Position numbers and translations under genes: made by a program
Source of the DNA: an uncultured Clostridia bacterium
GTDB lineage: Bacteria; Bacillota; Clostridia; TANB77; CAG-508
Direction of reading: 5' to 3'
DNA length: 64,000 bases
NCBI GenBank assembly: GCA_947629085.1
Contig: CANRCM010000001.1
Span: 8,059 to 72,058 of the forward strand
The notes under the pieces: model-generated
What the model saw: the letters and a program-made list of their open reading frames with translations, nothing else
Database searches by the model: none
What the model was told of the DNA's origin: nothing
Shown: in pieces, positions 4,555-5,137 of the stretch
How positions within the stretch are numbered: the first letter of the stretch is position 1
Layout: the number at the start of each line of letters is the position of its first letter

Positions 4555-4610
4555 GCAAAAAAGCAAGACTAAGCCTATTTCTTTTTTACTTTTTATAGGC
4601 TTTAGTCTTG
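4555..4610 (-). terminator. strong terminator-like hairpin inside the 5' leader of the 3104-4510 gene (possible attenuator)
   Basis: 15-bp stem (CAAGACTAAGCCTAT / ATAGGCT(T)TAGTCTTG). On the minus strand it is followed by CTTTTTTG, and it lies about 45 nt upstream of the ATG. Confidence 0.45.
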
Positions 4611-4649
4611 TCTTTATTTATATTTTTTATTCCTCTTACTAAATTATAG

Positions 4650-4689
4650 CTCTCTCTCTCTCTCTCTCTCTCTCTCTCTCTCTCTCTAG
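4650..4689. repeat. perfect (CT)20 dinucleotide microsatellite, which is (AG)20 on the pilin sense strand
   Basis: 40 nt of uninterrupted CT units were read directly. It lies about 140-180 nt upstream of the pilin start codon at 4510. Confidence 0.95.
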
Positions 4690-5137
4690 AGTAGCAAGAG
4701 TTATAGATTGTACTGTTTTTTGCATTCTCATACCCTCTTTTTACTTTTGTTTTTACTTTTTTATTTTATACTAATTATTAGAATTTAACAAGTAATTTTT
4801 TAATATTTTATATTATTATAAATGGCAATAATAAATTTCCGGTTTATTATAAATCATATCGGTATTAGTAATAACTCTAAGATTACCCGAGTATGTTGTC
4901 AATGATATTTAATTTTTATCTGATTTGAATAATATATCTTTTAACAAAATTGTAATTTAACTTTTAAATTTTTTTCTTGAAAATTTAAATTCTGAAGATG
5001 AAAAATTCTCAAAGGAATTTGTAAAAAACTATATTATTAGTTTTTATTATATAAATAAACAAAGAATAATAATTTAAAATTATTATTCTTCATTTTCATT
5101 TATTCTGTGCTTTTTATATTTAATAAACAATTATATT

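Follow-up and report, generated by a model that had tools for sequence, protein, structure and literature searches.

A candidate phase-variable leader-peptide attenuator with a dinucleotide tract upstream of a pilin-like gene in an uncultured Clostridia bacterium

Expression of the pil1 locus of Streptococcus gallolyticus depends on GCAGA repeats that lie within the gene of a leader peptide and alter the length of that leader (Danne et al. 2014, PMC3894217). Leaders ending 39-49 nucleotides (nt) before the terminator go with low pil1 expression and those ending 4 nt before the hairpin or within it go with high expression, and the start-codon (ATG*), 3-STOP and terminator-deletion mutants proved that the mechanism is ribosome-mediated anti-termination (PMC3894217). 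The pil3 locus of the same species has the same design (PMC3894217). In the literature searched, this work was the sole paper found with an experimentally studied repeat-length switch that acts via leader-peptide attenuation. Here we describe a comparable element, an (AG)n tract in the leader of a pilin-like gene, in a stretch of 64,000 nt of DNA from an uncultured Clostridia bacterium (GenBank assembly GCA_947629085.1, contig CANRCM010000001.1, positions 8,059 to 72,058 of the forward strand), which is referred to as the window throughout.

In its sequence, the element has every feature by which an attenuator of the S. gallolyticus pil1 type can be recognised, and we hold it to be quite probable that the locus is a phase-variable leader-peptide attenuator. 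The observation at the site is real. The evidence that carries this reading is the arrangement of stop codons in the three frames that follow the tract, the conservation of this arrangement relative to the hairpin in related genomes, the repetition of the whole cassette within the source genome, and the presence of natural alleles of different tract length in sister species.

The leader and its three reading frames

The components of the leader and of the gene that follows it are given below in the order of transcription, with positions counted from the first letter of the window (ORF, open reading frame; SD, Shine-Dalgarno sequence; aa, amino acids).

4763-4791, minus strand: predicted sigma-70-type promoter found by promoter scan, with -35 TTGTTA at 4791-4786, a spacer of 17 nt and -10 TAAAAT at 4768-4763; the start site is deduced from it.
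4737-4733, minus strand: SD of the leader ORF, GAGGG, 7 nt 5' of the ATG at 4725 (read from the sequence).
4639-4725, minus strand: leader ORF as assembled, MQKTVQSITLATL(ER)6AII, 28 codons, with ATG at 4725-4723 and stop TAG at 4641-4639 (OFF frame).
4650-4687, minus strand: perfect (AG)19 tract of 38 bp, (CT)19 on the plus strand (TRF and direct reading).
4639-4649, minus strand: post-tract frame discriminator CTATAATTTAG, with TAA at 4646-4644 and TAG at 4641-4639 in two frames and the third frame open.
4586-4648, minus strand: ON-frame extension YNLVRGIKNINKDKTKAYKK, 20 codons, with TAA at 4588-4586 in the terminator loop.
4557-4615, minus strand: predicted intrinsic terminator, with core stem 4610-4595/4577-4564, loop 4594-4579 (16 nt) and U-run 4562-4557.
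3104-4524, minus strand: SD GGAGG at 4524-4520 and the gene of a 468-aa pilin-like protein, with ATG at 4510, stop at 3106-3104 and N-terminus MKKGTKG/ITLIALVITIIVILILAG.

The promoter pattern TTGnnA-17-TAAAAT is preserved in the paralogous copies on contigs C10, C15, C24, C42 and C65 of the source genome, and a canonical TTGACA-17-TATAAT is found at the equivalent position in relatives. Between the start of the leader and the tract there are 13 codons, MQKTVQSITLATL, and the distance from ATG to tract is 38 nt. An alternative in-frame ATG exists at 4731-4729, only 1 nt from the SD, and is ATA both in the C24 paralogue and in the sister-species locus L062; the ATG at 4725-4723 is likely the start codon of the leader. 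The hairpin of the terminator (4615-4560) has one bulged A in its stem and a predicted energy of -20.5 kcal/mol (RNAfold), and the leader as a whole folds at z = -4.0 compared with shuffled sequences, the terminator being retained in the centroid fold. The U-run ends 46 nt before the ATG of the pilin-like gene, and a promoter scan of the interval from the hairpin to this ATG found no promoter-like site. A search of positions 4300-5300 in Rfam, with E-values up to 10, rendered three chance-level matches only, and no riboswitch or known leader.

An earlier note on this DNA, drawn from the letters of the sequence, had proposed a frame-dependent slipped-strand attenuator at this place. Its main elements are where it put them and its idea gains support from the data presented below, both from the three-frame layout (43 of 45 clusters, compared with 17.6 expected) and from the SD and start codon (141 of 147 units), but several of its details were miscounted. 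The repeat that it gave as (CT)20 at 4650-4689 is (CT)19 at 4650-4687, the bases at 4688-4689 of the plus strand being AG and thus outside the tract; the start codon that it placed at 4727-4725 likely lies at 4725-4723; and its upstream ORF of 27 codons ending in (ER)6-E-L-stop, a reading that arose from a one-unit miscount, has 28 codons and ends in (ER)6-A-I-I-TAG. The pilin that it called 'giant' has 468 aa. The intrinsic terminator that it saw ahead of the pilin start, as well as the lack of a promoter between the two, stood up to the folding and the promoter scan just described. The promoter at 4791-4763, the published precedent, and the multi-copy (at least 11 per genome) and clade-wide nature of the cassette go beyond what that note contained.

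In every register (AG)n encodes alternating Glu and Arg, so that the tract sets the downstream frame only. With offset 0 after the tract the sequence reads CTA-TAA, with a stop at 4646-4644; with offset 2 it reads CT-ATA-ATT-TAG, with a stop at 4641-4639; and with offset 1 it stays open for 20 codons, up to the TAA within the loop of the terminator. Both OFF stops are located 28-33 nt 5' of the core stem. Given the 38 nt from ATG to tract, the long frame is entered if n is a multiple of 3, and it is predicted from this count that the assembled n = 19 reads OFF, while n = 18 or n = 21 would read ON. The triplet CGG is absent from the leader ORF and from its ON-frame extension; some relatives (for example L004 and L011) have a CGG close to the leader.

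By analogy with S. gallolyticus, the single proven system, we infer that translation of the leader, termination at the hairpin and ribosome-dependent read-through would together produce switching at the window locus. A constitutive promoter at 4791-4763 would give rise to an mRNA whose first cistron is the leader ORF (ATG at 4725) with its (AG)n tract, and slipped-strand mispairing at replication would add or drop AG units, with a frame shift of 2 nt per unit. In two of the frames the ribosome would halt at the TAA at 4646-4644 or at the TAG at 4641-4639, the terminator would fold and the pilin-like gene would be OFF. In the third frame the ribosome would pass through the left arm and stop in the loop, at the TAA at 4588-4586; its presence in the hairpin would prevent folding, and RNA polymerase would continue into the pilin-like gene, which would then be ON. 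Starting from n = 19, the loss of one unit or the gain of two would lead to the ON state.

Copies, relatives and tract-length alleles

The source assembly, a metagenome-assembled genome (MAG) of 1.13 Mb in 65 contigs with ca. 25% GC, was searched with a DNA query, and a leader cassette of ca. 330 nt was found to be present at least 11 times. In the whole genome, dinucleotide runs of six or more units comprise, apart from four (AT)6 or (TA)6 runs, 11 AG/CT tracts, each of which falls in a copy of the cassette; every long dinucleotide tract of the genome belongs to it. As assembled these tracts have 8-26 units, some being clipped by contig ends, and the complete ones have n = 15, 15, 16, 16, 17, 19, 21 and 26. 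All of the paralogous tracts are uninterrupted despite flanks that are 90-96% identical (4-10% diverged), which argues for continuing slippage. The terminator is found in the paralogues as well, with the exception of the copy on contig C12.

This copy (C12:17474-17640) has an (AG)26 tract, and a deletion with a 'tataaa' repeat on either side has removed the left arm of its hairpin; permanent read-through, irrespective of frame, is predicted for this switch, as a natural match to the terminator-deletion mutant of Danne et al. It was also observed that seven of the 11 AG tracts are no more than 50 nt away from a contig end, the ends in question being C10:1-73, C13:1-46, C14:1-16, C15:1-77, C42:1-18, C65:1-79 and the end of C11.

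The genome has 17 genes whose products carry the N-terminus KGITLIALVITIIVLLILAG. Five of them demonstrably follow a cassette and eight have no tract, while three begin too near to contig ends to be judged and one is a 19-codon fragment at a contig end. In the proposed scheme, five or more of the 17 pilin-like genes, and probably about nine, would be under the control of the cassette, and a clonal population could therefore show many combinations of surface proteins.

Tracts of (AG)12 or longer occur in 17 of the 121 species of the genus, several of which have 3-6 or more such loci. Of 401 genomes of the order, 21 had a stricter motif, (AG)11 or longer followed by CTAYAHTTTA. All 21 belong to the family of the window, 8 of 49 genera are represented, and the highest number of copies per genome was 27; the reversed pattern, used as a control, gave zero. 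A scan of species-representative genomes rendered at least 116 stretches from human, rabbit, mouse and other gut samples, and the records among those listed are uncultured Clostridia or Clostridium MAGs (one labelled 'uncultured bacterium'). In a pattern scan of metagenomes a single contig matched.

From the loci fetched, 155 units were extracted, of which 130 had sufficient downstream sequence. Units with a hairpin and U-run at -10 kcal/mol or stronger were assigned to a terminator type and those in which the ORF of the tract runs onward for more than 500 nt to a fused type, which gave 83 units of the terminator type, 35 of the fused type and 12 that were unclear. The 83 terminator-type units form 45 sequence clusters, and in 43 of these a single long frame stops at most 15 nt before the hairpin, inside it or beyond it, when shuffles of the spacer lead to an expectation of 17.6 of 45 and 0 of 200,000 simulations reached 43, a comparison to be read with the clusters taken as not phylogenetically independent. 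This relation between hairpin and frame was not part of the retrieval query. In the other two frames a stop codon mostly comes 4-34 nt past the tract, the stop of the long frame follows the position of the hairpin across 35-150 nt, and a strong hairpin with its U-run is found at a constant relative position with a sequence that differs among clusters.

In the upstream half of the unit, an SD and an in-frame start codon open the ORF of the tract in 141 of 147 units, compared with ca. 10 in shuffles. The N-terminal part of the leader is 8-28 codons long among species, is in frame with the tract at nearly all loci examined, and ends in a loose [LVI]-x-[AT]-[VL] motif. The long-frame peptides, on the other hand, are unrelated among clusters, and the long frame corresponds to offset 0 in some of them and to offset 1 in others. 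This lack of conservation indicates that the leader ORF is regulatory and not a protein in its own right; what appears to be conserved is one open frame up to the hairpin, not a peptide, which argues against a functional small protein.

At the nucleotide level, the motif CTAYAHTTTAR with early stops at +6/+11 or +11/+19 is recurrent in relatives. A conserved 'Y-T-L' peptide after the tract was considered and rejected, because many clusters use another frame and the conservation is that of the nucleotides; a flanking inverted repeat (TGTAG/CTACA) that would loop out the tract was dropped as well, since its pairing is inconsistent among loci.

Most of the callable downstream genes of ca. 70 terminator-type units have pilin-like N-termini. 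In the fused type, leader and tract are in frame with a long ORF, and among the distinct cases the tract mostly lies inside a prepilin leader, as in ...(ER)n-YNLEKGITLIAL...; these units provide independent evidence that the tract is read as codons, and their wiring, as it reads, is an ordinary translational phase switch. In the assembled states, 15 units of the terminator type read ON and 63 OFF, and 10 units of the fused type read ON and 24 OFF, which is close to the one third of unbiased switching or somewhat under it.

Tract lengths were compared at orthologous loci of sister species by means of exact-protein look-ups of the downstream genes. A first set, from three ENA assemblies, concerns a 236-aa pilin-like protein with LRR_5 repeats and a cassette that closely resembles that of the window. 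With flanks that are identical over 60 nt upstream and 150 nt downstream, n was 22 (OFF), 15 (long frame) and 17 (OFF), and a 40-aa leader is called by the gene finder at n = 15. A second set, from ten samples, concerns a 357-aa protein, with n = 13, 11, 15, 15, 13, 13, 11, 11, 13 and 13; every upstream haplotype includes more than one tract length. The two OFF frames are those of n = 11 and n = 13, and n = 15 corresponds to the long frame, with leaders of 45 or 46 aa called. In both sets, natural alleles span all three frames. The polymorphism between strains that the earlier note had proposed to look for is thus present, at orthologous loci of sister species (22/15/17 and 11/13/15). Two Logan contigs of a sister locus (L182 and L183) have collapsed tracts after odd A-runs and were treated as assembly artefacts.

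As regards the locus of the window itself, the exact-protein look-up of the 468-aa protein and of two paralogues rendered no record. A contig of another sample that carries RseP ends at 4774, the edge of the cassette, and in a second sample the contig begins inside the tract.

Some loci depart from this pattern. A control locus (L197-L199), that of homologue P0113, a common protein of gut Clostridia that was found on 217 contigs, has the same leader architecture with a short interrupted tract, AGAGAGAAAGAGAGAGAG, that is identical in three samples, among the matches listed, and a terminator-to-gene gap of ca. 330 nt. This locus looks like a decayed, locked switch, and its gene may have gained a promoter of its own. 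The locus of homologue P0004 (L203:100-330), whose product is 42% identical to the pilin-like protein of the window, has a (CA)12 tract with the same leader flanks, pre-tract peptide (…SIDTV) and terminator layout, and from this it seems that one repeat unit can replace another in the cassette. Finally, L188 shares with the L186-L195 set an identical 357-aa protein, the tract and the downstream leader, with an upstream leader that differs (MKATTLGTV…) and an upstream gene that is PDDEXK_2 transposase-like, compared with pyruvate kinase in the set; these differences point to recombination or transposition, with the tract or its vicinity as the breakpoint.

Weighing of the explanations

A number of observations speak against the attenuator. 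The OFF stops are only 23 nt from the weak outer pairs of the hairpin, and their distance of 28-33 nt is at the lower edge of the OFF range of S. gallolyticus (28 nt or more); the hairpin is moreover atypical, with a large loop (16 nt) and a bulged stem. The nucleotide motifs on both sides of the tract (…AAAnCCTTGrnrCTGTA before it and CTAYAHTTTAR… after it, in 87 non-redundant units) are conserved even where the long frame differs, which is more than the frame logic demands, the two early stops explaining part of it only. The pattern used to retrieve much of the comparative set includes the post-tract motif, so that the conservation of this motif is partly built in. The ON share of the terminator type, 19% (15 of 78), is somewhat under the one third corresponding to unbiased switching. 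Last, the window locus is broken at the cassette or the tract in the two other assemblies, the length variation being known from sister species. The conserved motifs that hug the tract could signal an extra layer, such as a control of slippage rate, an effect of the nascent peptide or a binding factor.

It might be the case that the tract switches the leader ORF alone, as a small phase-variable protein with its own terminator, and that the pilin-like gene is transcribed independently. Terminators are commonly located close after the stop codon of a gene, and at the homologue loci P0113 and P0012 the terminator is far from the gene or a simple sequence repeat is absent altogether, so that some family members clearly have their own promoters. 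However, the long-frame peptides are not conserved among clusters, the frame used varies too, only 46 nt without a promoter-like site separate the U-run from the ATG at the window, most of the ca. 70 callable terminator-type units are followed by a pilin-like gene, and the same leader is fused straight to prepilin leaders in the other wiring, all of which makes this explanation very unlikely to us. An effect of the tract on a promoter at the DNA level, either as a variable spacer in the manner of the (TA)n of Haemophilus influenzae hif, where the repeat is the spacer of the promoter, or as an upstream element in the manner of the (GAA)n of Mycoplasma gallisepticum vlhA, appears highly improbable. 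The window does have cTTGcta...(AG)n-c-TATAAT, relatives have TTGnnn and TAYAHT, and both flanks are conserved as nucleotides, but the spacer between TTGCTA and TATAAT would measure 43 nt at the window locus and 27-57 nt among copies, none of them close to the 17 nt that n = 6 would give; a promoter spacer of the hifA/B type (16-19 nt) was rejected on these grounds of spacing. The terminator would still be part of the 5' region of any transcript starting from that TATAAT. In 141 of 147 units a canonical promoter, an SD and an in-frame ATG precede the tract, and where it is fused to a long ORF the tract evidently serves as coding sequence. A vlhA-like upstream effect is conceivable as a layer added to the attenuator.

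Control could also depend on translation but proceed via Rho or mRNA decay, the hairpin being merely a stabiliser or a pause site. Polarity is a common result of premature stops and the distance from the OFF stops to the stem is short, both of which fit such a mechanism, whereas the strong hairpin and U-run keep their position as their sequence changes among clusters, the long-frame stop tracks the hairpin over 35-150 nt, and the untranslated stretch is short and A-rich, and thus a poor Rho utilisation (rut) site; a mechanism of this kind seems to us very improbable. That the repeat is a neutral microsatellite, spread with the duplicated 5' region of the pilin-like family and devoid of a regulatory role, would account for a multi-copy cassette of which many copies lie at contig ends and most read OFF. 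We find it extremely improbable, given that all the tracts are uninterrupted at a flank divergence of 4-10%, that the layout of stops in three frames relative to the hairpin is conserved far above chance, that a related cassette with the same flanks has (CA)n instead of (GA)n, and that natural alleles occur in all three frames. The leader-peptide attenuator is the reading that we retain.

The putatively gated proteins and the comparison with described switches

The 468-aa protein has a prepilin-like KG/ITLIALVITIIV sequence. The Pfam model N_methyl (PF07963) matches it below threshold, at 12.2 bits (cut-off 21.2), and it matches all five paralogues tested over residues 3-27, at 11.4-13.7 bits with the same cut-off; no match of the 468-aa protein in Pfam and NCBIfam was over threshold. 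A Glu at position +5 of the mature protein was not found: the sequence there is I-T-L-I-A, with Ala at +5, as is the case in the aligned paralogues that cover this position, and the protein is for this reason termed pilin-like and not pilin. Some minor pilins are also without E5. In an AlphaFold2 model based on a 48-sequence alignment (predicted local-distance difference test, pLDDT, 91.5; predicted template-modelling score, pTM, 0.83), an N-terminal helix of residues 6-69 is followed by a beta-rich domain of ca. 400 aa. A Foldseek search of this model in the PDB rendered no match (best E-value 0.076, template-modelling score at most 0.10), and the protein has at least 4903 homologues of the full-length type, without a Pfam domain, which are named 'hypothetical' or 'type II secretion system protein'. 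The beta-rich domain of the model may represent a binding fold that has yet to be described. The evidence supports calling the product a pilin-like surface protein, and no more than that.

Varied C-terminal modules were observed in gated proteins of loci L169 (the 357-aa protein; L186-L195), L151, L147, L088 and L062. Some gated proteins have BspA-type LRR_5 repeats by Pfam match, and others have motifs, recognised by eye, that we take to be FGE-sulfatase/SUMF1-like (…GNQFVWVPV…RGG…).

The genome also encodes parts of a machinery for such proteins. A prepilin peptidase (Peptidase_A24, 68 bits) is located at C4:13938-14273, and ATPases of the PilB/PilT type (T2SSE, 346 and 145 bits) are located at C1:26704-28703, which corresponds to 18646-20645 in the window. 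Assembly of the switch-controlled proteins would fall to this ATPase region, presumably the core operon of a type IV pilus. Ca. 2.7 kb from the T2SSE genes (window ca. 23335-23460) there is a 142-aa pilin-like gene that has no tract.

The lineage is a widespread one of uncultured gut Clostridia from humans, rabbits, mice and other animals. If the switch is confirmed, these commensals would vary their surface to a large part by this route, which could affect the evasion of immunity or phages and adhesion in the niche. The data suggest that the same switch logic arose independently of S. gallolyticus, at 11-27 copies per genome. It is possible, although we propose it tentatively and somewhat short of deeming it probable, that uncultured low-GC gut Clostridia have a portable modular cassette composed of an SD-ATG, a short peptide of variable sequence with [LVI]-x-[AT]-[VL] at its end, a dinucleotide tract of exchangeable unit and a three-frame stop discriminator, used in two wirings, either as a terminator-gating leader ORF or as an in-frame cleavable prepilin leader, and whose 11-27 independently switching copies would allow thousands of combinations of pilin-like, and probably ligand-binding, surface proteins per clone. 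On the practical side, the cassettes are a systematic cause of assembly fragmentation in the clade, their leader ORFs are missed by gene finders, and ON/OFF states could be read from tract lengths in strain-level metagenomics.

Compared with pil1 and pil3 of S. gallolyticus, the locus of the window has the same elements in the same order, namely promoter, SD-ATG leader ORF, repeat with a unit that is not a multiple of 3, terminator and pilus gene. The predicted terminator energies are -18.7 and -28.2 kcal/mol in S. gallolyticus and -20.5 kcal/mol here, and the number of repeats is variable among isolates, here those of sister species. The unit is GCAGA in S. gallolyticus (5 nt, 13-22 units) and AG here (2 nt, 19 units); two of three frames give long peptides there, whereas here there is one ON frame and two conserved early stops. 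The cargo of the former is a sortase-assembled LPXTG pilus operon, and that of the latter a type IV-pilin-like protein. S. gallolyticus has two loci, compared with at least 11 copies per genome here and up to 27 in relatives, and the second, fused mode of wiring sets the cassette apart as well. The S. gallolyticus system was proven by mutants, and the switch described here is a prediction from sequence.

Other described switches share some of these properties. In Neisseria opa, with (CTCTT)n in the region coding for the signal peptide, and in the (CT)n of the Helicobacter pylori oipA/hopH type, slippage toggles the frame of the gene; these are likewise homopurine/homopyrimidine repeats at the 5' end of surface-protein genes, and the fused mode of the relatives works alike, whereas the tract of the window lies in a separate upstream ORF and its predicted output is transcriptional, via the terminator. 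In Clostridioides difficile cwpV, site-specific inversion of DNA by a recombinase decides on the formation of a terminator in the 5' leader; the outcome, a heritable ON/OFF state of a surface protein determined at a leader terminator, would be the same, although it would be reached here by a repeat tract and translation of the leader, without inversion. In the attenuation of the Escherichia coli trp and his operons, which sense the supply of charged tRNA reversibly and are also discussed in PMC3894217, it likewise depends on where the ribosome stands in a short leader ORF whether a terminator folds. Here, by contrast, the end point of the ribosome would be set heritably by the length of the repeat, and (ER)n would not act as an amino-acid sensor, since the Glu-Arg repeat is identical in all registers. 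In M. gallisepticum vlhA, (GAA)n is located upstream of the promoter and acts by exact repeat number; as in the present case, a multigene family of surface proteins has, in the conserved 5' region of each copy, a simple repeat of its own that provides combinatorial variation, but in the cassette described here the tract is part of a translated ORF and the state is predicted to follow n mod 3.

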